A DNA stretch of 64,000 nucleotides from Candidatus Rokuibacteriota bacterium (GTDB taxonomy: Bacteria; Methylomirabilota; Methylomirabilia; Rokubacteriales; CSP1-6): positions 7,983 to 71,982 of the forward strand of contig JACPDG010000051.1 of NCBI GenBank assembly GCA_016184125.1. Reading direction: 5' to 3'. A program made the translations under genes and the position numbers. Numbering within the stretch: the first letter of the stretch is position 1; each line of letters begins with the position of its first letter. Under the pieces are notes generated by a model. The model saw only the letters and a program-made list of their open reading frames with translations. It was not told where the DNA came from and ran no database searches. Positions 2,327 through 60,864 of the stretch are shown one piece after another.

Positions 2327-3388
2327 ATGGTCACTTCGAGCCTCCCGCGAGACGAGCGCGTGAATCGCGCGCGCGTCCTGGTCATCGGCTCGGCGAACGT
2401 CGACTTCGTGGTCACGGTGCCGCGCCTGCCCGCGGCGGGCGAGACGGTGTCCGAGGGGACCCTGCTGATCAATCGCGGCGGCAAGGGCGCGAACCAGGCG
2501 GTGGCTTCACGGCGTCTCGGCGCCGACGTGCGCCTGATCGGCTGCGTCGGGAGCGATCCGTCGGGGGAGAGTATCCGGTCGGCGCTCGAGGGCGAGGGGA
2601 TCGGGATCGCGGGGCTCATGTCCACTACCGAGGCAGCGACGGGCACCGCCCTGATCATCGTCGACGCCGAGGGGCGCAACCAGATCGCGGTCGCCCCCGG
2701 CGCGAACCGGCGGCTCACCGTGGACGATGTACGCGCCCGGGAGGACGACCTCCGGTGGGCGCGCGTCGTCATCGGGTCGCTCGAGGTGCCGCTTCCCGCG
2801 GTGCGTGAGGCGTTCACGGTCGCGCGCGGTCACGGCGCCATCACGATCCTCAACCCGGCGCCCGTGCCGGCCACGCCGATCGACTTCTGGCCGCTCGTCG
2901 ATTACCTCACGCCGAACGCGGGCGAGGCGGAGCGATTGAGCGGGGTCCCGGTGCGGGATCAGCCCTCGGCCGCGCGGGCGGCGTCGGTCCTCCGCGAGCG
3001 CGGCGCCGGCACGGTGATCGTCACGCTCGGCGGCGACGGCGCGCTGCTGGTCACTGCCGACGGCGTCGGCCACGTGCCGGCGTTCACCGTGACGGCGATC
3101 GACACGACGGCGGCGGGCGACGCATTCAATGCCGGCCTCGCGACCGGTCTCGCGGACGGACGTCCGCTCACGGCCGCCGCCCGGTTCGCGAGCGCGGTCG
3201 CCGCGCTGGCGTGCACGCGACGCGGCGCGCAGGACTCGCTCCCGACACGGGCGAGCGTCGAAAAGATTTTATGGGGGGACTATCGAAGCCCCCCAAGCCC
3301 CCCACGCTCGGAGCCGTCCCGGGAGGGGTGCGCGGACGCACCCGTGGTGCGCGGACGCACCTGCGAAACCCGGGACCGCCCTCGATGA
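2327..3388 (+). CDS. rbsK: Ribokinase (PfkB family); C-terminal ~39 aa encoded by a repeat element
   Basis: GGKGANQAVA, NPAP, DTTAAGDAF motifs; adjacent to nucleoside hydrolase. Confidence 0.92.
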   Translation: MVTSSLPRDERVNRARVLVIGSANVDFVVTVPRLPAAGETVSEGTLLINRGGKGANQAVASRRLGADVRLIGCVGSDPSGESIRSALEGEGIGIAGLMSTTEAATGTALIIVDAEGRNQIAVAPGANRRLTVDDVRAREDDLRWARVVIGSLEVPLPAVREAFTVARGHGAITILNPAPVPATPIDFWPLVDYLTPNAGEAERLSGVPVRDQPSAARAASVLRERGAGTVIVTLGGDGALLVTADGVGHVPAFTVTAIDTTAAGDAFNAGLATGLADGRPLTAAARFASAVAALACTRRGAQDSLPTRASVEKILWGDYRSPPSPPRSEPSREGCADAPVVRGRTCETRDRPR

Positions 3389-3410
3389 TCGGATTCGCTC
3401 ACGGCCCCTC
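3271..3410 (+). repeat. G6/C6-hairpin repeat family 1, copy A
   Basis: ATGGGGGGACTATCGAAGCCCCCCAAGCCCCCCACGCTCGGAG...GGATTCGCTCACGG; shared with 8 other loci. Confidence 0.9.
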
Positions 3411-4511
3411 ACGCCCGACCCGCTCGGTCAACGCCTCCACCCGGCCGAGCGCCTGCGCGATCCGCTCCGGCGCGAGCCGTCCACGGCGGAGCGCCTCGCG
3501 GATTGCCGTGAGCGCCGTGAGCGCCGCGGAGCGGCCGTCGGGCAGGCGGTCCTCGGCGATGAGCAGCAGGTCGGCGCCCGCGTCGAGCGCGAGCACGGCC
3601 GCCTCGCCGAGCCCGTAGTGCCCGTCGATCGCGCCCATCCTCAGGTCGTCCGTCACGACGAGCCCGCGGAAGCCCAGGTCCCGGCGGAGCAGACCGGTGA
3701 TCGTCGCATGGGACAGGGTCGCGGGATGCTCCGGGTCGAGCGTCCGGTTGAACACGTGCGCCGTCATGATCGCGTCCACGAGTTCCTCGGCGATCAGCGT
3801 GCGGTACGGGATGAGCTCGATCTCCGGCCTCGCGGTCGCCGTCACGTCGACGAACCCGAGATGTGAGTCGTCGAAGCTCGAGCCGTGTCCGGGGAAGTGC
3901 TTGAGGGCGGTGAGGACGCCCGCGGCGCGCATCCCGGACATCCAGGCGCGCGCGTGCTCGGTCACCAGGAGCGGGTTCGCGCCGAAGCTCCGCCCGAGGC
4001 CGACGATGACGGGGTTCGCCGGGTTGTAGCCGACGTCCACGACCGGTCCGAGGTTCCAGTTGATTCCGGCCTCGCGGAGCAGTGCGCCGATGCGGCGCGC
4101 CTCCAGCTCGGTCGCGGCGAAGTCGTTCTCGTCGCCGAGGTCGCGGTGCGAGAGGCTCGGGGTGAAGCCTGCTTGCGCGCCCAGCCGCATGACGCGGCCG
4201 CCCTCGGCGTCGACGGCGATGAGCAGCGGCGCTCGGCCGCACGATTGCACGCGGTGCCTCACCGCGGTCGTGAGCTCGCGCACCTGCTGCGCGCTGGTGA
4301 TGTTGCGGCCGAAGAGCACGATGCCGGCGACGCGGACGTCGCACAGGAGACGATCGAGCTCCTCGCTGGCGTCGAGCGCGGTGCCCGAGAAGCCCACCAG
4401 CAGGAGACGGCCGAGGTGCGGCTCGAGCCGCGCGAGGACCACCGGGTCGGGGCGCAGCATGGCGCAGCCGGTCGCGAGCAGCAGCGTGGCGAGCAGGAGC
4501 CGACGGCGCAC
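3399..4511 (-). CDS. nagZ: Beta-N-acetylhexosaminidase (GH3), lipoprotein
   Basis: IAVDAEGGRV, KHFPGHG, VTDDLRM motifs; lipobox LATGC. Confidence 0.9.
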   Translation of the reverse strand: MRRRLLLATLLLATGCAMLRPDPVVLARLEPHLGRLLLVGFSGTALDASEELDRLLCDVRVAGIVLFGRNITSAQQVRELTTAVRHRVQSCGRAPLLIAVDAEGGRVMRLGAQAGFTPSLSHRDLGDENDFAATELEARRIGALLREAGINWNLGPVVDVGYNPANPVIVGLGRSFGANPLLVTEHARAWMSGMRAAGVLTALKHFPGHGSSFDDSHLGFVDVTATARPEIELIPYRTLIAEELVDAIMTAHVFNRTLDPEHPATLSHATITGLLRRDLGFRGLVVTDDLRMGAIDGHYGLGEAAVLALDAGADLLLIAEDRLPDGRSAALTALTAIREALRRGRLAPERIAQALGRVEALTERVGREGP

Positions 4512-4513
4512 GG

Positions 4514-5355: not shown

Positions 5356-6618
5356 ATGAGCACGTCCCGGGTTTTCTTCGGCTGGTGGGTCGCGCTGTCC
5401 TTCTCGGCGATGGTGTTCCTCTCCACCGGCATCCGCTTCACCGTCGGACCGTTCCTCAAGCCGATGGTGGCCGACCTCGGTCTCGACCGCGCCAGCTTCT
5501 CGCTCGTCGTCTCCGTGGGCCTCTTCCTCTACGGCGCGGTCATGCCGGCCGTCGGACGCCTCGCCGATCAGCTCGGCGCGCGGCCGGTCGTCGTCGCGGG
5601 CGCCATCGTGCTCGCGGGCTCGGTGGCGGCGAACGCGCTGGTCCAGCACTACTGGCAGCTCTGGATCGTCTACGGCCTCGGCATGGCGCTCGGTCTCGCG
5701 ATGACGGGCCACGTCGTGGCGTCTGCGGTGATCACCCGGTGGTTCACGCGACGGCGCGCGACGGCGCTGTCGCTGCTCGGCGCCGCGTCGATGGCGGGCA
5801 TGAGCCTCCTCGTCCCCATCTCGATGTGGCTGATCATGCGGATCGGCTGGCGCCTGACCTACGTGGTCCTCGCGGCCGCGGCCCTCGTCGTGATCCTGCC
5901 GCTCGCGCTCTGGGTCATGCGCGACGCGCCCGAGTCGATGGGGCTCGCGCCCGACGGCGCGCCCGTGGCGACCACCCGGGCGCCGGCCGGCGACGAGCGC
6001 ATGACCGCCGCGGCCGCGATGCAGACCCGACCGTTCTGGCACATCGCGCTCGCGCTCTCGACCTGTGGGTTCTCGATGAGTCTGCTGTCGGCCCACGGCG
6101 TGCCGATGCTCACCGACCACGGCTACCACCCGATGGTCGCCTCGTGGGCCTTCGCCCTCCTGGGCGGCACGAACGTCGTGTTCGCCTTGATCCTCGGTAC
6201 GGTCGCCGACCGGATCGGCGCACGACCCGTGCTCGTCGGGATCTACGGCGGACGCGCGATCGCGGTCGCCCTCCTGTTCGTGATCCGCGACCAGCCGCTC
6301 GCGATCATGCTCGTCGCGGCGCTCGGCGGCGCGACCATGGCCGGCACGTTCGCCATGACATCGGCGCTCACGGCGGACATCTTCGGCCGGTTCTCCGTCG
6401 GCTCCGTCTTCGGCGCGATGTTCCTCGTCCACCAGGCGGGCGCAGCGCTCGGCTCGTGGCTCGGTGGTGTCTCGTTCGAGGGGACCGGCGGGTACGGGCT
6501 CGCCTTCGCCGTGGCGTCGATGACGCTGCTGTCCGCGTCGGTCCTGAGCCTCACGACGGACGTGCGCCCGCGGTGCGTCCCGGCGGCAAGCCTGTCCGCC
6601 GTCGCCGGCGGCCGGTGA
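5356..6618 (+). CDS. MFS transporter
   Basis: 12 hydrophobic segments; GRLADQLGAR and GTVADRIGAR MFS loop motifs. Confidence 0.9.
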   Translation: MSTSRVFFGWWVALSFSAMVFLSTGIRFTVGPFLKPMVADLGLDRASFSLVVSVGLFLYGAVMPAVGRLADQLGARPVVVAGAIVLAGSVAANALVQHYWQLWIVYGLGMALGLAMTGHVVASAVITRWFTRRRATALSLLGAASMAGMSLLVPISMWLIMRIGWRLTYVVLAAAALVVILPLALWVMRDAPESMGLAPDGAPVATTRAPAGDERMTAAAAMQTRPFWHIALALSTCGFSMSLLSAHGVPMLTDHGYHPMVASWAFALLGGTNVVFALILGTVADRIGARPVLVGIYGGRAIAVALLFVIRDQPLAIMLVAALGGATMAGTFAMTSALTADIFGRFSVGSVFGAMFLVHQAGAALGSWLGGVSFEGTGGYGLAFAVASMTLLSASVLSLTTDVRPRCVPAASLSAVAGGR

Positions 6619-7444: not shown

Positions 7445-8523
7445 ACCGCATCGTCGGCACGGGGATCGCCGTGCCGCCGACCGTCGTGGACAACGGGCTC
7501 CTGTCGCGCTGCATGTCGACGACCGACGAGTGGATCGTCCAGCGCAGCGGTATCAGGCAGCGTCACGTGTCGCCGGACACCTGGCGGATGCTCCAGCGCC
7601 TGGCGGAGGCGCCGGACAAGCCGGCGTTCATGGACTCGGTGTTCGCCCAGGGGCTCGACGGCTGCATCGACTCGTCGATGACCGTGACGGACCTCGCGCT
7701 CGAAGCGAGCGCGATGGCGCTCAAGGCCGCGGGCATCCGCGCGCAGGAGCTCGACTGTATCGTCGAGTCCTCGACCCTGCCGGACCTGGCGTACCCGCAC
7801 ACGGGGTGCGTGCTGCAGGGACGGCTCGGGCTCACGAGCACGCCCGCGATCAGCCTCCAGCAGGGGTGCGCCGGCTTCGTCTACGGGCTGGCCATCGCCG
7901 ACCAGATGATGCGCGGCGGGATGTACCGCCAGGTCCTCGTGGTGGGTGCCGAGCTCCTGTCGAGCGCGTTCGATTACACCGACCGCGGCCGAGACATGGC
8001 GGTCCTGTTCGCCGACGGTGCGGGGGCGGCGGTCGTGCGGGCCGAGACCGGCAACCGCGGCGTGATCTCGAGTCACCTGCACTCCGACGGCACGATGATC
8101 GACGCGCTGTCCGGCGAGCTGTGTGGGTCCTCGACGTTCCCGCCGGTCTCGAAGAAGAAGATCGACGACGGCCGGGCGCGTCCGCGGATGAACGGCCGCC
8201 AGGTCTTCGTGCACGCCGTCCGGCGCTTCCGCGAGGTCATCCTCGAGTGCGTCGAGGCCAACGGCATCACGCTCGGCGACGTGGATCGCTTCGTCGTGCA
8301 CCAGGCGAATCTCAGGATCATCGAAGCGGTGGGCGACGCGCTCGGCATCCCGCCCGATCGCTTCTTCAACAACATCGAGCGCTTCGGCAACACCGCCGCC
8401 GCGTCGGTGCCCATCGCGTTGCACGAGGCGCTCGCGGCCGGCGCGATCCGCGACGGGGACCTCGTGATGCTCGCGTCGTTCGGCACCGGGCTGTCCTGGG
8501 GCGCGAACATGATCCGCTGGTAA
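7441..8523 (+). CDS. fabH: 3-oxoacyl-ACP synthase III
   Basis: Cys-His-Asn triad: GCAGF, HQANLRI, GNTAAAS; LFADGAGA; ATGA overlap with upstream gene. Confidence 0.9.
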   Translation: MNRIVGTGIAVPPTVVDNGLLSRCMSTTDEWIVQRSGIRQRHVSPDTWRMLQRLAEAPDKPAFMDSVFAQGLDGCIDSSMTVTDLALEASAMALKAAGIRAQELDCIVESSTLPDLAYPHTGCVLQGRLGLTSTPAISLQQGCAGFVYGLAIADQMMRGGMYRQVLVVGAELLSSAFDYTDRGRDMAVLFADGAGAAVVRAETGNRGVISSHLHSDGTMIDALSGELCGSSTFPPVSKKKIDDGRARPRMNGRQVFVHAVRRFREVILECVEANGITLGDVDRFVVHQANLRIIEAVGDALGIPPDRFFNNIERFGNTAAASVPIALHEALAAGAIRDGDLVMLASFGTGLSWGANMIRW

Positions 8524-12384: not shown

Positions 12385-12462
12385 ACGGAGCACCCGCCGC
12401 TATAGGTCAATGTACCTGTTTTTCTGGCGATTTAATGATGCGTATGCGTCATCGTGCGGCCG

Positions 12463-12478
12463 CGGCATTCCCGGTGCA
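12463..12478 (+). promoter_or_regulatory. Candidate sigma-54 promoter P2 for the oxidase operon
   Basis: CGGCATTCCCGGTGCA with correct GG/GC spacing; AT-rich tract 12401-12440 lies between it and UAS set 2. Confidence 0.5.
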
Positions 12479-12621
12479 CTACGCCGCACCGCGTATTCGT
12501 CGCTTCGCCGACGAGCTCGCATCTCTGCGCAGGTCCACGAGGAGTGCCTCACGCGAAGGAGGGACTGATGCGGAGCGGACCGGTCCACGCGCAACCGACA
12601 CGACGCAAGGAGAGACGCACG

Positions 12622-15600
12622 ATGACGCCGCACCGCACACGAGCCCGCATTCCCGCACTCACGACCCGCCGCCGTGCGATCGGCCTGCTCGGCCCGATCG
12701 TGCTCGTCGCCGTGTTGCTCGCGGCGGTCCTTCCCGGTCCCGCCCATGGGCATGGGGCCTGCGCCACCACGGTGGTGGCCGACGTGGTCGCCTTCGACAC
12801 GCCGATGATGTTCAACCGCCTGGGCGCGCAGAACCCGAACTGGATCACGTACGCGCTGAAGCGCGACGTGGTCGCCCTCACGGGCGGCGCCGCGGGGCCC
12901 GGTAACGCCCAGATGCGCAAGGACAAGCGGATTCGCCCGCTCGTCCTGCGCGTCAACGAGGGCGATTGCCTGAAGGTCAACTTCACCAACTGGCTCGCCG
13001 GCGCAGCGAACCCGTTCGTCAACGCCGACCGCGAGCCGCCGATGAACCTCGAGTCGCCGTTCCTGAAGATCGACGACCAGGTGCGTGGCCGCTACGCCGG
13101 CTTCCACGTGCGCGGTCTGCAGCTCGCCGGCACCATCGCGTCCGACGCCTCCAACGTCGGCAGGAACGCCAGCAGCCTGGTCCCGTCCGGCGGCGGCGCG
13201 ACGTACACCTACTTCGCTCCACCAGGGACGCGTGGCGCCTACCTTGCGGACAGCTACGGCGCGACGTTCGGCGGAGAAGCCACGGCCGGCAACACGGGCC
13301 AGGGCATGTTCGCCGTCGTCAACGTGGAGCCGAAGGGCGCCCGCTGGTACCGCAGCCAGGTGACCGATGAGGAGCTGCGGCTGGCCACGACGGGCACGAC
13401 GGCGGCCGGCCAGCCGATTCTCAGTTATGAGGCGCGCTATCCGGCGACGAACCCCGACGGGTCGCCGAGCATCTGGTTCGCCGAGGGCAAGGCAAACCTG
13501 CCGATCCTCAACATGAGGGACGGCAACGCCATCGTCCACTCGGACATCAACGCGATCATCGCTGGCCCGAATCCCGACGGTACCTTCCCGGCGAGCACCT
13601 ACCCGCTGGAGAGCGCCGGCAAGCGCAATCCGGCCGTGCCCAACCGGCTGGAGCCGTTCCGCGAGTTCACCACCGTCTTCCACGATGAGCCGTCCGTGGG
13701 GCAGGCGTTCCCGGGCTTCTACGACGCCAACCCGGTCACCAGGCGCCTCCTCCACGGCGTCCGCGACGGGTTCATGATCAACTACGGCTCGGGCGGCATC
13801 GGCTCGGAAATCATCGCCAACCGCCTGGGCGTGGGGCCGATGTGGGACTGCCTCTCCTGCGCCTACGAGGAGTTCTTCCTCGGCTCCTCGGAGGTTGGCG
13901 ACCCGGCGATGCTGGTCGACATTCCTGCGAACGTCGGCCTCGAAGCCTGCGACGTCGCGGGCGCGAACTGCCTCGACGTCGGGCCGAAGGCGACCAAGGC
14001 GCTCTTCCCGGACGACCCGTCGAACGTCCATCACAGCTACCAGAACGACCGGGTCGTGTTCCGGAACCTGCACGCGGGGAAGGAGCACCACATCTTCCAC
14101 CTCCACAACCACCAGTGGCTCTTCGACGCCAACGACGACAACTCGAACTATCTGGACGCCCAGGCGATCGGCCCAGGCTCCGGGTACACGTACGAGATCA
14201 ACTTCGGCGGCAGCGGCAACCGCAACAAGACTGCCGGCGACGCGATCTTCCACTGCCACTTCTATCCCCACTTCGCCCAGGGCATGTGGGAGCTGTGGCG
14301 GATCCACGACGTGTACGAGACCGGCACGCAGCTGGACGTGAGCGGTGGTGGCTTCCACACCGTGCCCTTCGCCCTGTTCGACGGCACGCCGGCCGTGTCG
14401 TCCAGCGTGCCTGGGGCCCGGATGAGGGCACTGCCCGACGGTGAGATCCTGGCCGGCACGCCGATCCCGGCTCTGGTCCCGCTCCCCGGCAAGGCGCTGC
14501 CGCTGATGCCGGGCGAGGTCGTGGTCGTCCAGAAGAACGCCAATCCCGGCGTGGACGAGGTCCCCGACGACCCGGTGGCATGCGCCGCGGATCCGAACGG
14601 GCCGACCTGCGGCGTCCAGGCGCTGCCGGATTCGAGCCAAGCCCACGTGGTCGACCGCGCGCAGAACCCCGGCTACCCGTTCTGGATCGCCGGTGTCGAT
14701 TGTGGCGGCGACCCCGTGAACTGCCCGCTCGGGGTCGTGGGCCAGCGGCCCCCGACGCCGGTCCTCGACATGCTGAGCGAGGGTCAGGCCGCCGGGCTCC
14801 GCGCCGGCAACGGCACGCTGTTCGGCGCGCTCAACAACCTGGGCGGCCCGGCCGACGGCGGCTGGGACGGCGGGCTGCCGCGCCACGCGCTCGACGGCTT
14901 CCTGGCCGCCGGTGGCCGGACGCCGGACGTGTTCCACCAGGAGCAGACCAAGCTCAGCTTCGACAAGGAGATCTTCAAGGCCAAGCCGGTCTGGTTCCCC
15001 GAGGGCGGCACCGATGTCGAGCAGGCTGCGATGGCGTTCCATGCCGTCCGTGCCTACCCGAGCACCGCGGTGCGGCTTGACGGCACTACCACCACGGCCG
15101 ACTACATCACCAACGGCGGACCGCCCCAGGCGGGCGCGCCCATGTCCGAGCCGTGCATCGACGACAGGGGCGTCACGCTCTTCACCGGTGTCACGGGGCA
15201 GTGGTTCGGCTCGACGCCGGGGAGCCTGGTGAGCCTCGGCACCTCGCCGTTCAGCGCGACCGCGCCGCGCGTCTACAAGGGCGCCAACATCCAGATCGAC
15301 GCGGTCTTCAACAAGGTCGGCACCCACTACCCCCAGCAGCGGATCATCTCGCTCTGGGAGGACGCGCTGCCGTTCATCGACAAGCAGAAACCGCCGGAAC
15401 CCTTCGTCATCCGCAACAACACGCTCGACTGCACGCGGTACCTGCACACGAACCTGGTGCCCAAGCGCTTCGAGGTGGACGACTACCAGGTGACGACGCC
15501 GACGGACGTGATCGGCCAGCACATCCACCTGCCCAAGTGGGACCTGCCGGCGGCGGACGGCTCGGGCAACGGCTGGAACTACGAGGACGGGACGCTGTCG

Positions 15601-46066: not shown

Positions 46067-46083
46067 ACTCCGAGAGTGGCTAC

Positions 46084-47034: not shown

Positions 47035-47041
47035 GCCCGAC

Positions 47042-47959
47042 ATGGCGGTCAACGACCCCGCCGCGGACACCGTCGACCTCGGTTGCGCATCCGCCGTGGA
47101 GCGGCGCTCGCCGCTCTGGCTGGTGCAGCTCGCGCGCCGCAAGATCACGCTCGCCGGTGCGGTGATCATGCTCGCGACGCTCGTGGTCGGCGTGCTCGCC
47201 CCGGTGATCGCGGGCAACCCGACGCAGATGGAGGTGCAGGCGCGGCTGTCGGCCCCGAGCCGCACGCACTGGTTCGGCACCGACGACGTCGGCCGTGACG
47301 TCTACAGCCGGGTCGTGTACGGCGCCCGGCTGTCGATCTTCGTGGGGGCCTGCGTCGTGCTGTTCTCGTTCGTGGTCGGCGTCACCTGCGGGCTCATCGC
47401 GGGCTTCTATCCGAGGCTCGACAACCTCGTCATGCGCCTGATGGACGGCCTCATGGCGTTTCCGGCGATCATCCTCGCCATCGCGCTCATGGCCTCCCTC
47501 GGTCCCAGCGTCGCGAACGTGATCATCGCCATCGGCATCGTGTACTCGCCGCGCGTCGCGCGGGTCGTCCGCGGCTCCGTGCTCGTGATCCGCGAGACCG
47601 CGTACGTCGAGGCGGCGCGCGCGCTCGGCGCCGCGGACGTCGTGCTCATGCTGCGTCACGTGCTCCCGAACTGCCTGTCGCCCGTGATCGTCCAGGCGAG
47701 CTTCGTGTTCGCCGCGGCGGTGCTCACCGAGGCCGCGCTGTCGTTCCTGGGCGTCGGCGTGCCGCCGTACGTCCCGAGCTGGGGGAACATCCTGTCCGAG
47801 GGGCGCCTCTACATCCAGCAGGCGCCCTGGCTCGTGCTCTACCCCGGCGGCGCGATCATGCTGACGATTTTCGGGCTCAACCTGTTCGGCGACGGGCTGC
47901 GCGACCTTCTCGATCCGAAGATCCGGGGCCTGCAGACGGAACGACAGCGCGCGGGCTGA
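47042..47959 (+). CDS. ABC peptide transporter permease (DppC-like)
   Basis: HWFGTDDVGRD, YVEAARALGA, NLFGDGLRDLLDP. Confidence 0.94.
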   Translation: MAVNDPAADTVDLGCASAVERRSPLWLVQLARRKITLAGAVIMLATLVVGVLAPVIAGNPTQMEVQARLSAPSRTHWFGTDDVGRDVYSRVVYGARLSIFVGACVVLFSFVVGVTCGLIAGFYPRLDNLVMRLMDGLMAFPAIILAIALMASLGPSVANVIIAIGIVYSPRVARVVRGSVLVIRETAYVEAARALGAADVVLMLRHVLPNCLSPVIVQASFVFAAAVLTEAALSFLGVGVPPYVPSWGNILSEGRLYIQQAPWLVLYPGGAIMLTIFGLNLFGDGLRDLLDPKIRGLQTERQRAG

Positions 47960-47968
47960 TCCGACCTC

Positions 47969-48041
47969 ATGGGGGGCCCCGACATGGCCCCCCAAACCCC
48001 CCAGCGCTCGGAGCCGTCCCGGGAAACCCGGGACGGCCCTC
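47969..48041 (+). repeat. G6/C6-hairpin repeat family 1, copy G
   Basis: ATGGGGGGCCCCGACATGGCCCCCCAAACCCCCCAGCGCTCGGAGCCGTCCCGGGAAACCCGGG. Confidence 0.88.
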
Positions 48042-48066
48042 GGCGCCGGAAGGAGGACGACAGAAG

Positions 48067-49689
48067 ATGCCACCGCATCGGAACGCCTACCGTCCGGTCG
48101 TCATGGGCACGCGCGGCGTCGTCACGTCCGCACACCCACTCGCCTCCATGGCCGGCATCCGCGCGCTGCTCGCCGGCGGCAACGCCGTGGATGCGGCCGT
48201 CGCCGTCGGTGCCGCGCTGAACGTCGTCGAGCCGTTCATGTCGGGCGCCGGCGGCATCGGCCTGATGCTCGTCTCGCGTGACGGGGGCCGCGAGCGCCAC
48301 GTCCTCGACTTCATCGGGCACGCGCCGGCCGCCGCAGACCGGACGCGGGTGACGGAAGACGAGATCGCCGGTGGGCCGAAGGCGTGCGCCACGCCCGGGA
48401 ACCTCGGCGGCTGGCTCGCCGCCCACGAGCGGTTCGGACGGCTGCCGCGCGCGACGGTGCTGGAGCCCGCGATCTCGATGGCCGAGCAGGGCGTGCCGCT
48501 CACGTGGAAGAACGTCGAGTTCTTCGAGAATGCCGGGCAGACGCTCGCGCGGTCGGCCGAAGCCGGTCGCCTCTATCTCGGCGATGGCGGCCCGCGACCC
48601 GGCAAGGTCGTGACGTACAGGGACCTCGCCCGAACGCTCCGTCAGGTCGCCGAGGGCGGCGCGGACGCGTTCTATCGCGGACCGATCGCGAAGGCCATCG
48701 CGGCAGCCGTGCGCGAGGCGGGCGGCTGGCTCGAGGAGGAGGACCTCGCGCGATTCGCACCGGTCTGGCGCGAGCCCGCGACGATCACCTACCGCGGCCA
48801 CGAGATCGCCTCGATGCCGCCGCCGTTCGCGGCGTTCCAGATGCTCGAGACGCTGAACGTCCTCGAGGGCTACGACCTGCGCGGGTGGGGGCACAACACC
48901 GTCGATGCGCTGCACCACCTCATCGAGGCGATCAAGCTCGCGTCGGCGGACCGTCTCGCGTACGCGTACACGCCCGACGTGCCGATCCGCGGGCTGCTGT
49001 CGAAGGCGTATGCGGCGTCGCAGCGCGCGCGCATCCGGAGCGACCGCGCGAGCGTGAGCGAGGGCGAGCGCTTCAACCGGGACACGCTCGCCGGGCAGAT
49101 CCGCGAGGGCCATCCGGCGCGCTTCGAGAACGAGCAGACGACGCACTTCGCCTGCGCCGACGCCGAGGGCACGGTGGTCTCGGTCACGCAGACGCTCGGC
49201 GTCCCGTTCGGCTCGGGCTTCGCCGTCCCGGGCACGGGCATCGTGCTCAACAACATTCTCAAGTGGATGGACCTGGACCCCGAGTCACCCAACGTGCTGA
49301 AGCCCGGGCGCAAGGCCGGCACGATGATGTCGCCGACGCAGGTCTATCGCGACGGCGGCTTCCTGCTGTCGATCGGCACGCCGGGCTCCTACGGGATCTT
49401 GCAGACGACGGCGCAGATGCTCCTGAACGTCCTCGAGTTCGGCCTCAACCTCCAGGAGGCGATCGAGGCGCCGCGCGCGCGCGTCTATCGCGACCGGGTG
49501 GTCGACGCGGAGTCACGCATCTCGCCGGACGTCCTCGACGGCCTGCGCCGTCGCGGTCACCAGGTGAACGTCATCGCCGACTGGTCGTGGATCGTGGGCG
49601 GCGGGCAGGGGATCATGCGCGATTCCGAGTCGGGCGCGCTGATGGGAGGCGCCGATCCGCGTCGCGACGGCTACGCGCTGGCGGTGTAG
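48067..49689 (+). CDS. ggt: Gamma-glutamyltransferase
   Basis: GGNAVDAAVA, TPGNLGGW, TTHF nucleophile, SVTQTL, GSGF, GTMMSP, GGADPRRDG. Confidence 0.94.
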   Translation: MPPHRNAYRPVVMGTRGVVTSAHPLASMAGIRALLAGGNAVDAAVAVGAALNVVEPFMSGAGGIGLMLVSRDGGRERHVLDFIGHAPAAADRTRVTEDEIAGGPKACATPGNLGGWLAAHERFGRLPRATVLEPAISMAEQGVPLTWKNVEFFENAGQTLARSAEAGRLYLGDGGPRPGKVVTYRDLARTLRQVAEGGADAFYRGPIAKAIAAAVREAGGWLEEEDLARFAPVWREPATITYRGHEIASMPPPFAAFQMLETLNVLEGYDLRGWGHNTVDALHHLIEAIKLASADRLAYAYTPDVPIRGLLSKAYAASQRARIRSDRASVSEGERFNRDTLAGQIREGHPARFENEQTTHFACADAEGTVVSVTQTLGVPFGSGFAVPGTGIVLNNILKWMDLDPESPNVLKPGRKAGTMMSPTQVYRDGGFLLSIGTPGSYGILQTTAQMLLNVLEFGLNLQEAIEAPRARVYRDRVVDAESRISPDVLDGLRRRGHQVNVIADWSWIVGGGQGIMRDSESGALMGGADPRRDGYALAV

Positions 49690-52996: not shown

Positions 52997-55369
52997 ATGT
53001 CCGCCTCGCTCACCCGTCGCGATCTCGAGAACGCGCTCCCCGACGTCAGTAGCAGCCTGAAGCTCGCCGGCCTGAAGGGCGGCGTGGACATCTGGCGTGA
53101 CGCGCAGGGCATCCCGCACGTGAAGGCGGAGTCGACGCACGACGCGTTCCTCGCGCAGGGCTTCGTGCACGCGCAGGACCGCCTCTGGCAGATGGCGTAC
53201 GACCGTCGCCGCGCGTACGGGCGGTGGGCGGAGTGCGCGGGACGGGACGCGCTCGCGCAGGACGTGCAGATGCGGCGGTTCCGCCTCGAGGTCTCATCGC
53301 GCGCCGACTACGACGCCGCGAGCGCCGAGACGAAGGCGATGCTCGACGCGTACGCGGCCGGCGTGAACGCGTTCATCGCGACCACGAAGGCGCTCCCCGT
53401 CGAGTTTCGGCTCGCGGGCGTGCAGGCGGAGCCGTGGCGCCCCTGGGACAGCTCCGCCGTCTACAAGGTGCGCCATGTGTTGATGGGGCTCTGGCAAACG
53501 AAGGCGTGGCGCGCCCGTCTCGTGCGGCACCTCGGCGCCGCGCGCGCCGCGGAGCTGTGTCCGGGCACGCAGCCGAACCCGATGCTCATCGTGCCGCCGG
53601 GTGTCGAGTGGACCGGGCCGCCGGCGAACGGCATCGCGGAGCTGACCGAGGCGGAGGCCGCGCTCGCGTTCCTGCCGGAGTGGGAGAACGGCAGCAACAA
53701 CTGGGCGGTGGCGGGACGGCGGACCGCGTCGGGCAAGCCGCTCGTCGCCGGCGATCCGCACCGGCCGCTCGACGTGCCGAACGTCTACTACCAGAACCAC
53801 GTCGCGTGCCCCGAGTTCGACGTGATCGGGCTCAGCTTCGCGGGCGTGCCCGGCTTCCCGCACTTCGGGCACAACCGCTCGGTCGCGTGGTGCGTCACGC
53901 ACACGAGCGCGGACTACCAGGATCTCTACATCGAGCGCTTCCAGCCGGGCGACCCGGGCCGGTACGAGTTCAAGGGCGAGTGGCGCGAGGCGCGGACGAC
54001 ACGGGAGACGATCCGCGTGCGTGGCGAGGACGCCGTCGAGATCGAGGTCACCGAGACGCACCACGGCCCGGTCGTGCTCGGCGATCCGAGGAGCGGGTAC
54101 GCGATGAGCTTCCGCTACACCGCGACCGCGGAGCCGAACCGGACGTTCGAGGCGCTGCTGCCGATGCTGCGCGCCTCGACGGCCGCCGAGATCGAGGCCG
54201 CGATGCGGCCGTGGGTCGATCCGGTGAACAACTTCGTCTTCGCCGATGTGCACGGCGCGATCGGCTACAAGACGCGCGGGCAGGTCCCGGTGAGGTCCAG
54301 GGCGAACGCCTGGGTGCCGGTGCCTGGCTGGGACGGCGCGCACGAGTGGCAGGGGATGGTGCCGTTCGAGGAGATGCCGGTGGTGCGCGATCCGGAGACG
54401 GGATGGGTGGCGACCGCGAACAGCAAGGTCGTAGGCCCGGACTACCCCCACTACATCAGTCTGGATTTCGCGCCGGACTTCCGGACGCGGCGGCTCGTGC
54501 ATCACCTGAGCGCGCTCGAGCACGCGACGGTCGACGACATGGCGGCGATCCACGCCGATCGGGTCTCCATCCCCGCGCGCGAGCTCGTCGACATCCTGCG
54601 GTACCTCTCACCGGCGGAGCCGCGCGCGAAGGCCGCGGTCGACCTCCTGCGCGGGTGGGACGGCACGATGGACGCCGACGGGGTGGCGCCCGCGATCTAC
54701 AGCGTGTTCCGCGAGCACCTCATGCGTGACCTCATGGCGCCCATCCTCGGTCCGCTGTCGAGCGAGGCCTTCGCCGGCGCGCCGCGCGGCGCCGTCACGC
54801 ACATGACGCGGCTGCGCGCCCGGCTCACCGAGCTCATCCGTGCGGACGACTCGACGCTCCTGCCCGACGGCGCCTCCTGGCCGGCGATGCTCGAGCGCGC
54901 GCTCACCGGCGCGGTCAGCGAGCTGACGGACCTGCTCGGCCCGGACACCACGGCGTGGCGCTGGGGCGCGATCCACACGACGCAGCCCCGCCACACGCTG
55001 TCGTCCGCGTTCCCCGAGTCGGCGTCGCTGCTCGATCCTCCGTCCGTCGAGATGGGCGGCGACGGCGACACGGTGCAGGCCGGGTCGTTCATCTCGGGCC
55101 GCCCGCAGGAAGGCCCCTCGGGCCGCCCGCAGGAAGGCCCCTCGGGCGCGGGCTACGGCCTCACCTCGACGTCGGTCGCGCGCTACGTCTTCGACCTCGG
55201 CGACTGGGAGCGGAGCGCCTGGGTGGTGCCGCTCGGCAGCTCCGGGCATCCGGGGAGCGAGCACTACGCGGACCAGGTCGAGGCGTGGTCCCGGCTCACG
55301 CTGCTGCCGATGCGCTACGACTGGGCGAGGATCGCGCGCGAGGCGGCCGCGCACCAGAGCCTCGACTGA
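52997..55369 (+). CDS. Penicillin acylase family Ntn-hydrolase, no signal peptide seen
   Basis: RDAQGIPH, QGFVHAQDRLWQM, GSNNWAV nucleophile, AGDPH. Confidence 0.93.
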   Translation: MSASLTRRDLENALPDVSSSLKLAGLKGGVDIWRDAQGIPHVKAESTHDAFLAQGFVHAQDRLWQMAYDRRRAYGRWAECAGRDALAQDVQMRRFRLEVSSRADYDAASAETKAMLDAYAAGVNAFIATTKALPVEFRLAGVQAEPWRPWDSSAVYKVRHVLMGLWQTKAWRARLVRHLGAARAAELCPGTQPNPMLIVPPGVEWTGPPANGIAELTEAEAALAFLPEWENGSNNWAVAGRRTASGKPLVAGDPHRPLDVPNVYYQNHVACPEFDVIGLSFAGVPGFPHFGHNRSVAWCVTHTSADYQDLYIERFQPGDPGRYEFKGEWREARTTRETIRVRGEDAVEIEVTETHHGPVVLGDPRSGYAMSFRYTATAEPNRTFEALLPMLRASTAAEIEAAMRPWVDPVNNFVFADVHGAIGYKTRGQVPVRSRANAWVPVPGWDGAHEWQGMVPFEEMPVVRDPETGWVATANSKVVGPDYPHYISLDFAPDFRTRRLVHHLSALEHATVDDMAAIHADRVSIPARELVDILRYLSPAEPRAKAAVDLLRGWDGTMDADGVAPAIYSVFREHLMRDLMAPILGPLSSEAFAGAPRGAVTHMTRLRARLTELIRADDSTLLPDGASWPAMLERALTGAVSELTDLLGPDTTAWRWGAIHTTQPRHTLSSAFPESASLLDPPSVEMGGDGDTVQAGSFISGRPQEGPSGRPQEGPSGAGYGLTSTSVARYVFDLGDWERSAWVVPLGSSGHPGSEHYADQVEAWSRLTLLPMRYDWARIAREAAAHQSLD
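55094..55147 (+). repeat. 2 x 24-bp in-frame tandem insertion (RPQEGPSG x2)
   Basis: TCGGGC-CGCCCGCAGGAAGGCCCC-TCGGGC-CGCCCGCAGGAAGGCCCC-TCGGGC. Confidence 0.9.
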
Positions 55370-55376
55370 CTTCTTC

Positions 55377-55473
55377 ATTGGGGGGACTACCGAAGCCCCC
55401 CAAGCCCCCCACGCTCGGAGGCGGCCTGGGGAACCCGGGCCGCCCCTCGGGGACCCGATTCGTTCACGGGCCC
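55377..55473 (+). repeat. G6/C6-hairpin repeat family 1, copy H
   Basis: ATTGGGGGGACTACCGAAGCCCCCCAAGCCCCCCACGCTCGGAG...GATTCGTTCACGG. Confidence 0.88.
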
Positions 55474-55693
55474 TGACCGTCCCAAGACGAGCCGACGCCG
55501 CAACGCGTATCTACCGGAATTTGTTGTAGGCAGATGGCCGGCTCCGACGCCTTCCGTCGATGTCCTGGGGAACGAGTGAACGAGTGTCTGTGACGCCAGT
55601 TGGTAGTGGTCCTCTCCCAGGCGTCCCCCGCGGCTCTGGCGTATCCATCTTTGGGCATTGTCGGCATATGCAGGGTGCGCCTATGTCGCTGCT

Positions 55694-57190
55694 ATGTCCC
55701 TCAGCACCGGCGACTACCGGCCACGCGACGCCGAGCACGCTGTGCTGTACCGCGTGATCGACGAGCACCTCGACGCCTTCCTCGACACGGCCAGGCGTCA
55801 CGCGGACGGCGCCCCGCTGCCCGCATTCGTGGAGCAAGAGTTCCGAGACTTCCTGACGTGCGGCGTGCTGGCGCACGGCTTCGCGCGCCTGCGCTGCACC
55901 GACTGCGCGCTCGAACGGCTCGTGCCGTTCTCGTGCAAGGGCCGGGGCTTCTGCCCGAGCTGTGGTGGCCGGCGCATGACGGAGTGCGCCGCCCGCCAGG
56001 TCGACGAGGTGCTGCCGCGGGTGCCCGTGCGCCAGTGGGTGCTGAGCCTGCCGTACCGGCTGCGCTATCTGCTGGCGTGGGATCACGCGCTCGCGCGCGC
56101 GGTGCTCGGCGTGTACGTGCGTGTGTTGCTCGGCTTCCAGCGCCAGCGCGCGCGACGCTACGGAATCTGCGACGGGCGGTCGGGCTCGGTGACGGTGATC
56201 CAGCGCTTCGGGGGCGGACTCAATCTGAACGGCCACTACCACACGCTGCTGTTCGACGGCGTCTTCTTCGCCGATCGCGCGAATGACGCGCTCGATTTCC
56301 GGCCCTTGCCGCCGCCGACGGACGAGGAGGTTGGGCATGTGCTCGCACGGATCGCCGTGCGGGTGCAGCGCCTGCTCAAGCGCCGCTGGCTCGATCCCTG
56401 CGACACCGACATGTGCCAGGCCGATCCGGTGGTCGAAGAATCTCCCGTGCTCGCCGGTATCAGCAGCGCCTCGATCCAGGGGCGCATCGCGCTCGGTCCG
56501 CGCGCGGGGGCGCGGGTGTGGCGCGTCGGGGCCGATCCCGACGCGCCCTGGGTACTCTCGACAGCGCCGAGGCACGCGCACCTCGCGGGCTTCGATCTGC
56601 ACGCCAACGTCGACGCGCCGGCCTCGGATCGCACACGGCTGGAGCAGCTGTGCCGCTATCTGCTCCGGCCGGCGGTGGCGCAGGACCGGCTGCGACTCCT
56701 CGACGATGGCCGCATCGTGCTCACGCTGAAGACGGCGTGGGCGGACGGCACCCGGCAGCTCCTGTTCGAGCCGCTGGAACTGCTCGAGAAGCTGGCCGCG
56801 CTCATCCCGCGGCCGCGGATCAATCTGGTGCTCTACCACGGCGTGCTCGCGCCGCATTCCGGCTGGCGCGCCCGCGTGGTCGCCCATGGCGCGCCGCCGG
56901 CGGAAGCGCCGGTGGTCGCGAGCGCTGCACCCGAGGCGGACGACGAGCCGACGACGGCGCCGGTCGTTCGCTACTGGGCGTGGGCCGATCTGATGCGGCG
57001 CGCATTTGACATCGACGTGCTGGCATGCCCGCGCTGCGGTGGACGCCTGCGATTGATCGCCACGGTCGAAGCCCCCGACGCGATTCGCGCCATCCTCGGA
57101 GCTCTCGCCGAGTCAGAGGGGCTCGTGGGCCGGGCGCCGCCGCCCGTGCCGGCGCTCAACGCCAGCCAGGCGGCGGCGACCGGGGCCTGA
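55694..57190 (+). mobile_element. IS91-family / ISCR-type rolling-circle (HUH) transposase
   Basis: CGVLAHGFARLRC...SCKGRGFCPSC zinc domain, RQWVLSLP, QRFG..LNLNGHYH HUH, LCRYLLRPAV, C-terminal CPRCGG. Confidence 0.92.
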
Positions 57191-57322
57191 GCGCCCGCCA
57201 TCCGACCCCGCGCTCGCCGGGGTCTGCTCGCTCGCGTCCTGGCGCGGTTCCATCCCCTGGTCCCGCGCCCCGTTGCCCGGCAGAGAATCCCCTTGACATG
57301 GCGGTTGTCCGCGCTGTAGGTG

Positions 57323-57427
57323 GGGGGCGGACGCGAGAACCGGGGGCGGACGCGAGAACCGGGGGCGGACGCGAGAACCGGGGGCGGACGCGAGAACCGG
57401 GGGCGGACGCGAGAACCGGGGGCGGAC
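57323..57427 (+). repeat. 19-bp tandem array, 5 full units plus a partial unit
   Basis: GGGGGCGGACGCGAGAACC at 57323, 57342, 57361, 57380, 57399; no spacers. Confidence 0.95.
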
Positions 57428-57518
57428 CCGGGACCCGGCGCGGAGGGGCGGGGTGCTGAGAAGGCGCGTTCCGTCAACCAGGGCCTTTATCCCGTCTACG
57501 CTCACCCTGGAGGTGACG

Positions 57519-59116
57519 ATGGCCACGTTCGCGCGGGTGCGTCTCCTGCTCGCCACGAGCATCATTCTCACGGTGTTTCTCCCATCTGTCGCGGGCGCCG
57601 ACGCGCGCGTCGTCGACTGCGCCGCGGGGCGGCGGATCGGATCGGCGTTGCGGATGCCGGCCGGCCGGCAGCTCCTCGTGATCGTCAAGGGCACGTGCAC
57701 GGAGAACGTCGCCGTCGCGCGCGACGACGTGACCCTGCGTGGAGATGCGGTGACGGGCGGTGGGATCAGCGCCGCCGATCCGGCGCGGGCCACGGTGCTC
57801 GTCGACGGCCGCAAGGGCGTCGTGCTGGATCTCCTCACCGTGTCGGGCGGCCAGAGCGGGATCACCGGCACCAACGGCGCCGTGTTCGCCATCCAGAACT
57901 CGACCGTGGAGCAGAACGTCCAGAACGGCATCGTCGCGAGCGTCGGCTCCGCGGTGACGCTGGCATCGAGCCGCGTCCGGAACAACGGCGCCAGCGGCAG
58001 CACGGCCCCCGAACGGGCGGGATGGGGGTATCCGGTTGACTCCGGGAACCCCCACCGGTAGCGACCTTCGGGGCGTAGCCCCGGCGACGAAGAACGGCGC
58101 GGTCCACCTGGGGCTCATGGGGTTGATCGGTAGTGGTGTCGACCGGAGCCAACCGGATACCCCCTTCGGGCGGGAATCAGGATCACGGATAACTCGGCGG
58201 CTGCGGTCATCGGCTCTGAGGTGTCGGGGAACGCGGATCACGGGATCCTCGTCACGCGCGGCAGCACCGCGCGCATCGGCGTCGACCTCTCGGGGGCGGC
58301 CGCGTCGAACACGATCGCGACGAACGGCGGCAACGGCATCACCGTGTACCAGAGCTCGCAGGCCCTCATCCGCGGAAACCTGTTGCAGTCGAACGGCCGT
58401 GGATCTCAGTCGAGGGGAGCAGCGCGACGATCACCGGGAACACGATCGAGTCGAGCACGCGCGCCGGCATCACGCTGAACAACGGGGGCACCGCGCGCAT
58501 CGGCGTGACCGACCTGGGAGCGGCGCTCGGCAACGTCATCCGGTCCAACGGCGGCGACGGGATCGACATCTTCCAGGCCTCGAACGCCCTCCATTTCGGC
58601 AACACCGTCGAGCAGAACAGCGGCACGGGCCTCTTCGTCGCCCGCGCGACGGCGCGGATGCTCGGGGGCCACACGATCCAGAACAACGGCAACCACGGGA
58701 TCTGGGTCGGCGCAGGCGCCAGCCTGTACCAGGGAGCCGGCGGCGGTTTCACCCTCACGCCGAGCCACGACACGATCACCGGCAACGGCAACACGTCGGG
58801 CGGCTCGGGCGTGTACAGCAACGGCACGTCGGTCGTCGAGCTCACCGATGCGACGATCAGCGACAACGCCAGGCACGGGATATGGGCTCGCCAGCAGGTG
58901 TCCATACGGCTCGCGCGCACCACGGTGGCGGTTCGCGTGGTGAACGGCACGCCCACCGGGAACGCGATCGACCTCGCGCTCGGCTCGAACGTCGACCTGA
59001 CCGCGGGCCCGCCGCCCGTGGGCGTCCAGGGCGACCTCCATTGCGCCGACGCGTCGTCACACGTGTCCGGCGACGTCTCCGGACTCACCGGCGCGAACGA
59101 CTGCACGAGCTTCTGA
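57519..59116 (+). pseudogene. Secreted right-handed beta-helix (NosD/pectin-lyase-like) gene broken by a MITE and a 1-bp deletion
   Basis: Signal peptide, N-GI repeats; same frame either side of the insert; shift at 58401-58402; ~481 aa if repaired. Confidence 0.82.
58023..58166. mobile_element. 144-bp MITE with 22-bp inverted repeats and 9-bp target duplication
   Basis: GGGGGTATCCGGTTGACTCCGG (58024-45) / CCGGAGCCAACCGGATACCCCC (58143-64); CGGGCGGGA at 58014-22 and 58167-75. Confidence 0.85.
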
Positions 59117-59257
59117 GCAGCCGCGCGCGCTTCCCGGCGGCAACCGAGGCTCCTCGCTGACGGATCGGCGGGCGAGCGACATCGTGGGGCCATGACGTCC
59201 TCCGTTGGTGACGACGGGCCCGCGACGAACGGCCACACGTTCTGGTAACCTCGTGGC

Positions 59258-60046
59258 ATGCAACTCGCCGACATCGACGCCCTGCTCGATCGCCACCGGG
59301 AACGGTTCCGCCGGCTTCTCGAGGAAATCGCCGCCGAGGAGGCGGGCGAAGATCCATTTGCCTTCCCGCTCGAACGGTTCAAGGCGCTGAGTGAAGACGA
59401 GAAAGCCACCCTCGTGGAGCGGGCATCGATCATCGCCCGCACGCGTGTCGAGCGCGAGTTCGAGCGGCGTCGTGCTGCTTGGCTGATTGTCGTCGGCGAC
59501 GACGTCGTGGCCGCCTCCCCGGACGCGACGGCCTTGCCCCCGCCCGAGGAGGTCCTGCGCCTCGGCGAGCCGAGTGGGCGTGTGGCCTATCTGTTCGAGG
59601 CGCCGCTGGTCGAGGAGTCGCTGGCCTGGAGATCCTCGTGGAGCCTGCTCCAGGGACCCGATCGATACCCGACGCTGCCTCTCGCCATCCAGGGCCCGCC
59701 GAGTCCACGCGGGATCGTCGCGGATCTCGACACGGGGTCGCCGGCGACATTCGTCGACGCCGGCCTCGTTGCGGCCCCCGTGACGACGTGGTTCACCGGA
59801 CACCATCTCGGAAGCCGCTTCATGTGGTCACCTGCACGTGTAGACTTCGAGATCACGCCGGTCGATGGTCAGCCGCGACGCGGCTCACTGGCAATCCGTC
59901 GCGTGCGAGGCTGGCGAGCCTCTCCATTCGTGCGTGTCAATCCAGCGCGGACGATGCTGGTCGGCCGCGACATGCTGCGCGCCTTCGGGCTGACGATCCT
60001 GCTCGCGGCATCGCGCGCGCAGAGCGAAGTGGTTGAGGCGCGCTGA
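59258..60046 (+). CDS. DUF5678-like domain fused to a retropepsin-like aspartyl protease
   Basis: IVADLDTGS catalytic motif, LVGRDML psi-loop; WLIVVGDDVVAAS N-domain. Confidence 0.62.
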   Translation: MQLADIDALLDRHRERFRRLLEEIAAEEAGEDPFAFPLERFKALSEDEKATLVERASIIARTRVEREFERRRAAWLIVVGDDVVAASPDATALPPPEEVLRLGEPSGRVAYLFEAPLVEESLAWRSSWSLLQGPDRYPTLPLAIQGPPSPRGIVADLDTGSPATFVDAGLVAAPVTTWFTGHHLGSRFMWSPARVDFEITPVDGQPRRGSLAIRRVRGWRASPFVRVNPARTMLVGRDMLRAFGLTILLAASRAQSEVVEAR

Positions 60047-60568
60047 AGCACCGCGGCGGGTTCCGCTCGCACGCCTGCCGGCCCGCTTGTTGGCGGGTGA
60101 GAGCACGTTGCGGATGGCCAGGAAGGCTTCGCGGACTCGTTCGGGCTCGGGGGGGGCTCGCCACGCGCACCGGCCGGGGCAGGAGGACGACCACGTCGAG
60201 CGCGTCGACCGGCGCGTCCCGCCGGCCCGGCGCGGGCTTCATCCACGCCAGCGGAACGTGAGGCCGGGCAGCTCCGGATCACCCCGGAGTTCGGTCGCAA
60301 GCGACACGTCCTGCGGCGCCTGCCCCCGGGCGGCGTCCTGACCCGGCCACTCTCCACAATGGCCATTCCCGCCATTCCAGACAGCCTACAGGACCGTCCA
60401 GCTTCGAGGCAGCCGTTTGCCCCCCGAACAGGGCCAGCGGCTGCACGGGCATCGCCGGGCCCGCGAAATCCCGGGCGAACGGCGGGCACGACGCCGTGGT
60501 ACGTGTCTTGCCGTTTCCTCGCGATGGTAGCCATCCCATTACGCGCGCATCGCTTCTGAGGTGACGGC

Positions 60569-60748
60569 ATGCAGAAACTGGCCACGGCAAGGCACCGGGT
60601 GGGCATCCTCGGCGACTTCTTCGAATTCCTCTGGGAACGGAAGCTCTGGTGGATGATCCCCATGTTCGCGATCGTGGCCGTGCTCGGGCTCCTGATGGTG
60701 TTCGCGCAGGGCTCGGCGTTCGCCCCCTTCATCTATACCTTATTCTGA
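60569..60748 (+). CDS. DUF5989 family small membrane protein (59 aa)
   Basis: FFEFLWERKLWWMIP...QGSAFAPFIYTLF. Confidence 0.88.
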   Translation: MQKLATARHRVGILGDFFEFLWERKLWWMIPMFAIVAVLGLLMVFAQGSAFAPFIYTLF

Positions 60749-60864
60749 TGGGGGGCCCCGACATGGCCCCCCATACCCCACCCCATACCCCCCCAGTGCT
60801 CGGAAGCGGCCCGGGGGACCCGGGCCGCTCCTCGGCTTCGCGCTCGGCCCAAGGGGGCCCCGAC
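60748..60864 (+). repeat. G6/C6-hairpin repeat family 1, copy I
   Basis: ATGGGGGGCCCCGACATGGCCCCCCATACCCCACCCC...; flanked by direct GGGGGCCCCGAC. Confidence 0.85.

Follow-up and report, generated by a model that had tools for sequence, protein, structure and literature searches.

Several families of dispersed hairpin repeats are well established in bacteria. In Escherichia coli and Salmonella, repetitive extragenic palindromes (REPs) and bacterial interspersed mosaic elements (BIMEs) are short, stable, imperfect palindromes without coding capacity, which lie at gene 3' ends and in operon interiors, including the spacer between binding-protein and permease genes (malE-malF in E. coli), in either orientation and as modular units or compound arrays of variable number. 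REPINs of Pseudomonas and other bacteria are inverted doublets of one REP at a fixed spacing: dispersed hairpins of lineage-specific sequence, kept by compensatory change in hundreds of copies and accompanied by a flanked, single-copy REP-associated tyrosine transposase (RAYT). The BOX repeats of Streptococcus pneumoniae (boxA-boxB-boxC) are intergenic and modular, with stable secondary structure and middle modules that are optional or repeated, while SMAG of Stenotrophomonas and TRIT of Mycobacterium are GC-rich stem-loops at convergent and tandem gene ends of high-GC genomes, with loop or stem subfamilies. For Rokubacteria, abundant and uncultured soil bacteria with large genomes, no dispersed repeat family was found in the literature searched. 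Here, we describe a family of two-hairpin repeats, headed by a G6/C6 stem, in a stretch of 64,000 nucleotides from Candidatus Rokuibacteriota contig JACPDG010000051.1 (hereafter the window; 71% G+C, no tRNA genes), where a first-pass annotation had reported nine dispersed loci.

The family is real, previously undescribed and REP/BIME-like, with a two-hairpin DNA unit that is copied, is held under structural constraint, gets into very short spacers where genes end and differs from one strain to another. With moderate confidence, we regard it as a lineage-specific, non-coding, modular palindromic repeat family of Rokubacteria that has probably spread as selfish or near-neutral DNA. By analogy of architecture and location it would seem nearest in kind to the enterobacterial REP/BIME, all of whose traits listed above recur in it, and close also to BOX-like modular repeats, with SMAG belonging to the same broad kind. 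There is no sequence similarity to REP/BIME, however, and the Rokubacteria unit lacks their GTAG-type 5' tetranucleotide, consists of two different hairpins with C6 repeats, belongs to another phylum and has no RAYT that could be seen. With REPINs it shares dispersed hairpins kept by compensatory change, lineage-specific sequence and, by extrapolation, hundreds of copies, whereas neither the inverted doublet nor the flanked RAYT was found. BOX differs in sequence and host, and its modules are longer, AT-rich and without a G6/C6 hairpin; SMAG has a GTAG head and an association with RAYTs, TRIT consists of one hairpin, and no sequence relation to either was detected. Rfam returned no matches at gathering thresholds over the whole window and none at E<=1 over 45780-48100 (2.3 kb, four units), plasmid records held no match to the repeat, and a literature search by sequence string and taxon found neither the head sequences nor any link between Rokubacteria and REP, REPIN or RAYT. 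The first-pass annotation had been unable to match the family to a named element, and had named a match to an Rfam family or a described insertion sequence (IS) end as grounds for giving it up as new; no such match emerged, the end of the only neighbouring IS being excluded below.

Throughout, a unit is one repeat copy, oriented head first, and A1 and A2 are the head loop types present in the window. All nine loci reported previously are present within the 64 kb, and together they hold 11 units. The A1 head, GGGGGG-A(C/T)TA(T/C)CGA(A/T)G-CCCCC(C), occurs six times (3273+, 27588-, 30263-, 38780-, 43096- and 55380+) and the A2 head, GGGGGGCCCCGACATGGCCCCCC, three times (46066-, 47971+ and 60750+). 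A degenerate A1 pattern has six matches in the window, against 0.00 expected from 100 dinucleotide-preserving shuffles. The covariance model proposed with the first-pass annotation was built (R1, from metagenome A2 copies and two window copies only), and recovers 10 units of the window at E 7e-16 to 8e-3, the copy at 30263 weakly (E 0.37), and no locus beyond the nine over the whole window. The locus positions given earlier are correct, with the qualification that on minus-strand copies the start given is the end of the tail; the locus at 45821, described as compound, does contain three units (45821-46066). The loci are as follows.

3271-3404, plus strand: A1 head (3273-3294), one C6 repeat, hairpin 2 containing two nested 16-nt hairpins (3327-3342 and 3346-3361), tail GATTCGCTCAC (3392-3402); R1 E 0.008; between convergent genes, with a PfkB-type open reading frame (ORF) upstream.
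27482-27590, minus strand: A1 head (27567-27588), one C6 repeat, hairpin 2 with a single nested 16-nt hairpin (27522-27537), tail (27484-27494); R1 E 5.6e-5; inside a PilM/PilN-like ORF at its open 3' end, with a PilO/T2SS-M-like gene downstream.
30114-30265, minus strand: A1 head (30243-30263), extra hairpin module GTACGAAGGGGGCTCACGCCCCCCTCGTAC instead of a C6 repeat, hairpin 2, nested 16-nt hairpin (30157-30172), tail (30116-30126); between T2SS-J-like and T2SS-K-like genes, with a truncated head copy at 30266-30281.
38654-38782, minus strand: A1 head (38760-38780), extra hairpin module, hairpin 2, degenerate tail (38667-38675); R1 E 3e-6; between carboxyltransferase and PEPCK genes that converge, the stop codon of PEPCK lying 7 nt ahead of the head.
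42999-43098, minus strand: A1 head (43075-43096), two ATG-C6 repeats, hairpin 2, tail (43001-43011); R1 E 2.7e-10; takes up the entire pdhA-pdhB spacer.
45802-46068, minus strand: compound array of three units in the spacer between a binding-protein gene (SBP) and dppB, comprising a full A2 unit (45991-46068), a unit of hairpin 2 only (45930-45976) and a third with truncated head and nested 16-nt hairpin (45818-45924), and ending in an A2-type tail, CTCCGACATG (45802-45811).
47969-48045, plus strand: minimal A2 unit with head (47971-47993), one C6 repeat and hairpin 2, tail-less; R1 E 1.3e-15; between dppC and a gamma-glutamyltranspeptidase gene.
55378-55469, plus strand: A1 head (55380-55401), one C6 repeat, hairpin 2, tail (55457-55467); R1 E 9e-10; after the stop codon of a penicillin-amidase gene, with an IS91-type insertion sequence starting about 110 nt further on.
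60748-60880, plus strand: A2 head (60750-60772), expanded C-tract repeats, hairpin 2 to about 60841, then a degenerate partial second head, GGGGGCCCCGACGTG; R1 E 2.3e-12; the head begins 1 nt past the stop codon of a DUF5989 gene.

Beyond the window, the family is Rokubacteria-wide and divided into head subfamilies. The PdhB protein encoded beside the copy at 43096 has thousands of close homologues, of which the named ones belong to Candidatus Rokubacteria, NC10 or Methylomirabilota. The exact A2 head is found on at least 120 contigs from many soil metagenomes, at loci of 65-76% G+C, several of which are syntenic with the window at 65-80% nucleotide identity. A hidden Markov model of the unit, run on the A2-head contigs and the window, identifies 189 units in 151 arrays over 721 kb, a density of about one array per 8 kb on contigs of at least 8 kb. 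A third head variant, GGGGGGCC-TCGAAGG-GCCCCCC, followed by GGA-CCCCCC-GACGCTC and a GTTCACGG tail, occurs in contigs of two named Rokubacteria metagenome-assembled genomes (MAGs), GCA_001788495.1 and GCA_001790345.1. The exact A1 head was found neither in JGI metagenome contigs nor among the matches listed from GTDB representative genomes, and appears restricted to the lineage of the window.

Two loci (L006, 4784-4966; L064, 1004-1180) carry tandem arrays of a 68-72-nt unit in which the A2 head is joined to about 49 nt foreign to the usual body (…AAACCTCCGCAGACGCGTGATGCGCTGTTGCAAGCTCTCAAAAGAGAT); as the spacers within these arrays are identical, they are not CRISPR arrays. Spacers of locus L001 also include two runs of exactly 100 N, which are scaffold gaps (8359-8458 and 14056-14155), and the window counterpart of the second carries the unit at 47969-48045. 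The repeats probably break assemblies of these genomes, and would be a likely source of the assembly breaks in Rokubacteria MAGs.

A unit of about 80-150 nt runs, in fixed order, through hairpin 1, NNN-C6 repeats, hairpin 2 and an optional tail. Hairpin 1 has the form N-T-G6(CC)-loop-(GG)C6-A-N', and its loop types are interchangeable; the A2 stem gains two further pairs (GGGGGGCC/GGCCCCCC) and encloses a 7-nt loop. One to three NNN-CCCCCC repeats follow, and it is here, downstream of the head, that the C6-repeat sequence noted previously is found, as a C6 repeat with CGCTCGGAG. The copies at 30263 and 38780, and several from metagenomes, replace these repeats with an extra hairpin of the G5-6/C5-6 type, CGAAGGGGGC-TAC-GCCCCCCTCG. 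Hairpin 2 is opened by the box (A/G)CG(C/T)TCGG, has 14 bp and a 3-nt loop, and is closed by CCTCGA; in five window units its loop holds a nested 16-nt hairpin, GGTGCG-NNNN-CGCACC, which occurs nowhere else in the window. Tail type tracks head type. GATTCG[CT][CT][CT]AC closes five A1-type copies, and CTCCGACA(G/T)G goes with A2 heads, in the compound window copy and, as read by eye, in about one-sixth of metagenome copies; the GATTCG tail reported from the first pass exists only behind A1 heads. Similarly, the CCCGGG..CCCGGG palindrome described then is present in the window, with CCCCGG..CCG(T/G)GG the commoner form in the wider family. Copies vary in the number of C6 repeats (one to three), in tail type (two), in whether they carry the extra or the nested hairpin and in whether they form compound arrays, which makes the unit a module mosaic of the BIME type.

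Both stems are maintained by compensatory change. Folded as single-stranded DNA, units reach -32 to -42 kcal/mol (z -2.9 to -6.2). Across 82 distinct copies and the 24 pairs of a hand-drawn structure, standard pairing is found in 94.0% of cells, compared to 87.2% after shuffling and 40-54% with partners displaced by one to three columns, and 115 cells are altered on both sides, against 33 expected. Compensatory change is seen at ten pairs, for example 59-84 (AU 40, CG 16, GC 14) and 70-74 (CG 50, GC 26), and a C.T mismatch in hairpin 2 is carried by 50 of the 82 copies. The heads do follow AT or ATT, as had been noticed, and positions -4 to -1 read A (66%), C (53%), R and T (96%); since the N-N' pair that closes hairpin 1 itself covaries (GC 31, AU 22), the two bases preceding G6 are part of the element and no target site. 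Non-Watson-Crick cells include as many G.T as A.C (24 of each), and so offer no indication of just one strand being read as RNA. This absence of strand asymmetry fits a role at the DNA level, or one independent of orientation.

Such an architecture raises the possibility, which we consider doubtful, of a true REPIN/RAYT system, in which REP-type hairpins are copied by a single-copy RAYT (a Y1 HUH transposase) encoded outside the window. Hairpins with covarying stems would be expected of it, as would extragenic location at gene 3' ends, high copy density and turnover between strains, and the family does consist of short imperfect palindromes with many extragenic copies. The details of the unit argue against it: the leader reads A-C-R-T, with no GTAG-type (GT(A/G)G) tetranucleotide at the 5' foot of the hairpin, and one unit comprises two unrelated hairpins in fixed order, arrayed head-to-tail and not as an inverted doublet of one REP. 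Neither did a Y1 transposase emerge: six-frame ORFs of at least 80 codons in the window and 122 loci (785 kb, made up of fragments of many genomes) gave no phmmer match to queries for IS200 TnpA and the E. coli RAYT (YafM), a weak negative.

The position of the units relative to genes was assessed with coding frames assigned from codon-position G+C and key genes checked with Pfam, and agrees with the earlier description of gene junctions, both orientations and modular subtypes. Every window copy is flanked, on one side or both, by the 3' end of a gene. Units occupy two of the four convergent spacers in the window (3271 and 38780) and none of the four divergent ones, and seven copies lie between co-directional genes in both orientations. 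Where both neighbours could be resolved (34 arrays), 10 arrays are tandem sense, 13 tandem antisense, 11 convergent and none divergent; with divergent spacers making up about 9% of those in the window, roughly three would be expected of 34, and the zero is thus modest evidence. The stop codon of an upstream gene on the same strand falls 1-7 nt ahead of G6, or else the head is mostly 7-11 nt from the start codon of a neighbour on the opposite strand. Two explanations of this close fit were considered and rejected. Targeting to stop codons was dropped, as empty spacers measure 1-16 nt and a unit inserted into so small an ancestral spacer must abut both genes, with no specific targeting needed. 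A reading of the reverse strand of the A1 head as the -10 box of leaderless genes was set aside for want of promoter-like sites, the tiny ancestral spacers again explaining adjacency to start codons.

The core of the unit is free of stop codons in all frames, and is therefore tolerated inside ORF ends. Both the PfkB-type ORF (2327-3388, plus strand) and the PilM/PilN-like ORF (27420-29087, minus strand) lack a stop before their unit and read through it. The C-terminal extensions encoded by the repeat come to about 40 residues in the PfkB-type kinase and about 60 in the PilM/PilN-like protein, and an orthologue of a read-through ORF at L106 ends some 10 codons past the point at which the unit starts. 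The family offers a natural experiment in the tolerance of hairpin repeats, not only between translationally coupled genes but also inside the ends of ORFs.

These positions bear also on a reading of the repeat as a selected cis-acting element that does not move, such as a lineage-specific terminator, a stabiliser of mRNA 3' ends or an inter-cistronic regulator, arisen or kept site by site. We judge this unlikely. A gene 3' end on at least one side in every case and the avoidance of divergent spacers would follow naturally from it, as would the repeated use of SBP-permease spacers, the great stability of the hairpins and the stop-free core. A terminator scan over 42900-48200, on the other hand, found no terminator-like or promoter-like consensus site, and the sequence after the hairpins is C-rich or mixed with no U-tract, unlike an intrinsic (Rho-independent) terminator. 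G.U and A.C mismatches show no asymmetry, both orientations occur at one orthologous spacer, and in relatives the spacers are empty and the genes translationally coupled. Finally, near-identical 23-nt heads at hundreds of unrelated sites point to copying rather than convergence.

Comparison of empty and filled sites between relatives, as had been suggested at first pass, provides the most direct view of turnover. The pdhA-pdhB spacer, 101 nt in the window and filled by a unit, is 1 nt from stop to start in L125; L123 is likewise free of the element, with a spacer of 16 nt by gene calls, or 1 nt should translation begin at a GTG further upstream. The two closest relatives, at 94% and 90% PdhB identity and compared by gene coordinates only, have pdhA-pdhB spacers of 99 and 81 nt, for which reason they probably hold a unit there. 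The SBP-dppB spacer measures 10-12 nt in L001 and L002, 49 nt in the 94% relative and 324 nt in the window, where it holds the compound array. Orientation varies too: the head of the SBP-dppB unit faces the permease gene in L032 and L053 and the SBP gene in L117, with flanks 84-90% identical, and a second flip at one spacer separates L062 from L077. At the closest range, L034 and L100 (99.7% identical) are set apart by precisely one unit, 85 nt long and with its head truncated.

Occupancy, orientation and tandem copy number thus vary between related strains. With orthologous spacers found empty or flipped, the units are not fixed at orthologous sites; such fixation had been named beforehand as grounds for abandoning a mobile family. 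The differences between strains match the output that a copying, inserting and duplicating element would be expected to leave, and we infer from this polymorphism that the family may be active. Of the earlier label, an active REP/MITE-like family (MITE, miniature inverted-repeat transposable element), the REP-like part is upheld by dispersed, modular hairpins at gene 3' ends, and the MITE part fails on the ends of the unit, as set out below. In practice, spacer occupancy, orientation and tandem copy number could serve for strain typing, and the family as a lineage marker in binning.

Other changes were observed at the same spacers. The pdhA-pdhB spacer of L001 (9455-9625) contains an unrelated palindrome, about 155 nt long and with arms of 40 nt, which L002 (1-135; 97% identical) lacks; one arm is an inverted copy of flanking sequence that is single-copy in L002, and the whole looks like a foldback duplication. 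The spot between the carboxyltransferase and PEPCK genes (38590-38788) is variable: both the 94% and the 90% relative have an M20 peptidase gene there, L001 a 106-codon ORF, and the window only the unit at 38654-38782.

The ends of the units carry little of what a conventional transposon would leave. No terminal inverted repeats were found, the longest inverted match between 5' and 3' flanks or ends averaging 4.07 nt against 4.11 nt in shuffled pairings. Direct repeats of at least 9 nt flank single units in three cases against 0.7 expected (13 nt at L061, about 5574-5664; 9 nt at L092, 4243-4360; 9 nt at L014, 681-800). A target-site duplication of fixed length was not found, with direct-repeat lengths of 7-13 nt, variable offsets and numbers marginally above the null; we draw no target duplication from these repeats, though individual cases are striking.

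Taken with the either-way orientation of units and the 1-16-nt spacers between translationally coupled genes that they enter, the variable direct repeats and missing terminal inverted repeats could indicate a mechanism that is neither RAYT-type nor cut-and-paste, for instance template-switch, foldback or target-primed copying, or a hairpin-specific enzyme confined to Rokubacteria. We hold this to be distinctly unlikely; were it true, recognition would fall to the G6/C6 head together with its C6 repeat.

The same ends speak against a MITE, that is, an internally deleted derivative of an IS, such as the IS91-type element beside the copy at 55380, moved in trans. Unit size lies within the MITE range, and a Y2 HUH transposase gene of the IS91 family (PF04986 and PF14319; 55658-57187, plus strand, apparently intact) begins about 190 nt downstream of that copy, within an insertion sequence extending over 55580-57300. 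Yet in six homologous IS copies (81-88% identity) what is shared with the window upstream of the gene extends for only about 110 nt, with neither a G6 head nor an R1 match, so the adjacency of the IS to the copy is incidental and its transposase was rejected as a partner. No other candidate for a parent IS sharing ends with the unit presented itself, and in combination with the missing terminal inverted repeats and fixed target duplication this largely refutes a MITE origin, which we now consider very improbable. The IS91-type transposase has thousands of homologues, being common in Rokubacteria, Gemmatimonadales and other soil MAGs, and the element forms part of a 5.2-kb stretch (55369-60569) missing from the 94% relative, whose amidase-DUF5989 gap is 177 nt.

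A search for a partner HUH/RAYT enzyme, also suggested at first pass, hence gave none in the window and the 122 loci, with the adjoining IS91-type transposase ruled out. Nor was a transposase present among 20 ORFs lying between, or close to, inverted pairs of the element: 14 belong to ordinary enzyme or transporter families (including amidase, URO-D, acetyl-CoA synthetase, MurJ and enoyl-CoA hydratase) and six have no Pfam match.

Returning to a REP/BIME-like family spread as selfish or near-neutral DNA, we propose that units would multiply by two routes: 1) insertion of the hairpin-forming unit by a putative enzyme, the likeliest type being a single-copy nuclease or transposase that recognises hairpins; 2) local tandem duplication. 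The recognition site is best sought in the T-G6...C6-A stem and the C6 repeat beside it, the only feature kept in all three head subfamilies while the loops differ. Once transcribed, the hairpins might act in both orientations as barriers to 3' exonucleases and protectors of 3' ends, or as partial attenuators within operons, with the spacer between binding-protein and permease genes a possible example by analogy with E. coli malE-malF. Several points weigh against this account: no mobilising enzyme was found by the phmmer search for RAYT/IS200, among the ORFs at inverted pairs or in the IS91-type neighbour; terminal inverted repeats are missing and flanking direct repeats barely exceed chance; the window copies have diverged, the best-matching pair (the 30263 copy and 38691-38781) agreeing at 93% over 91 nt; and the RNA-level role is argued from analogy. 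The copying enzyme, once found, would show either RAYT-type domestication in a further phylum or a mechanism of another sort.

Two further features of the window lie outside the repeat family. The 19-bp sequence GGGGGCGGACGCGAGAACC is perfectly repeated in tandem about 6.5 times at 57304-57455; this repeat lies 115 nt downstream of the IS91-type transposase gene, and may belong to the end of that element or to the upstream region of the neighbouring gene. At 12439-18468, on the plus strand, lies a very long ORF of about 2000 codons with a good coding signature.

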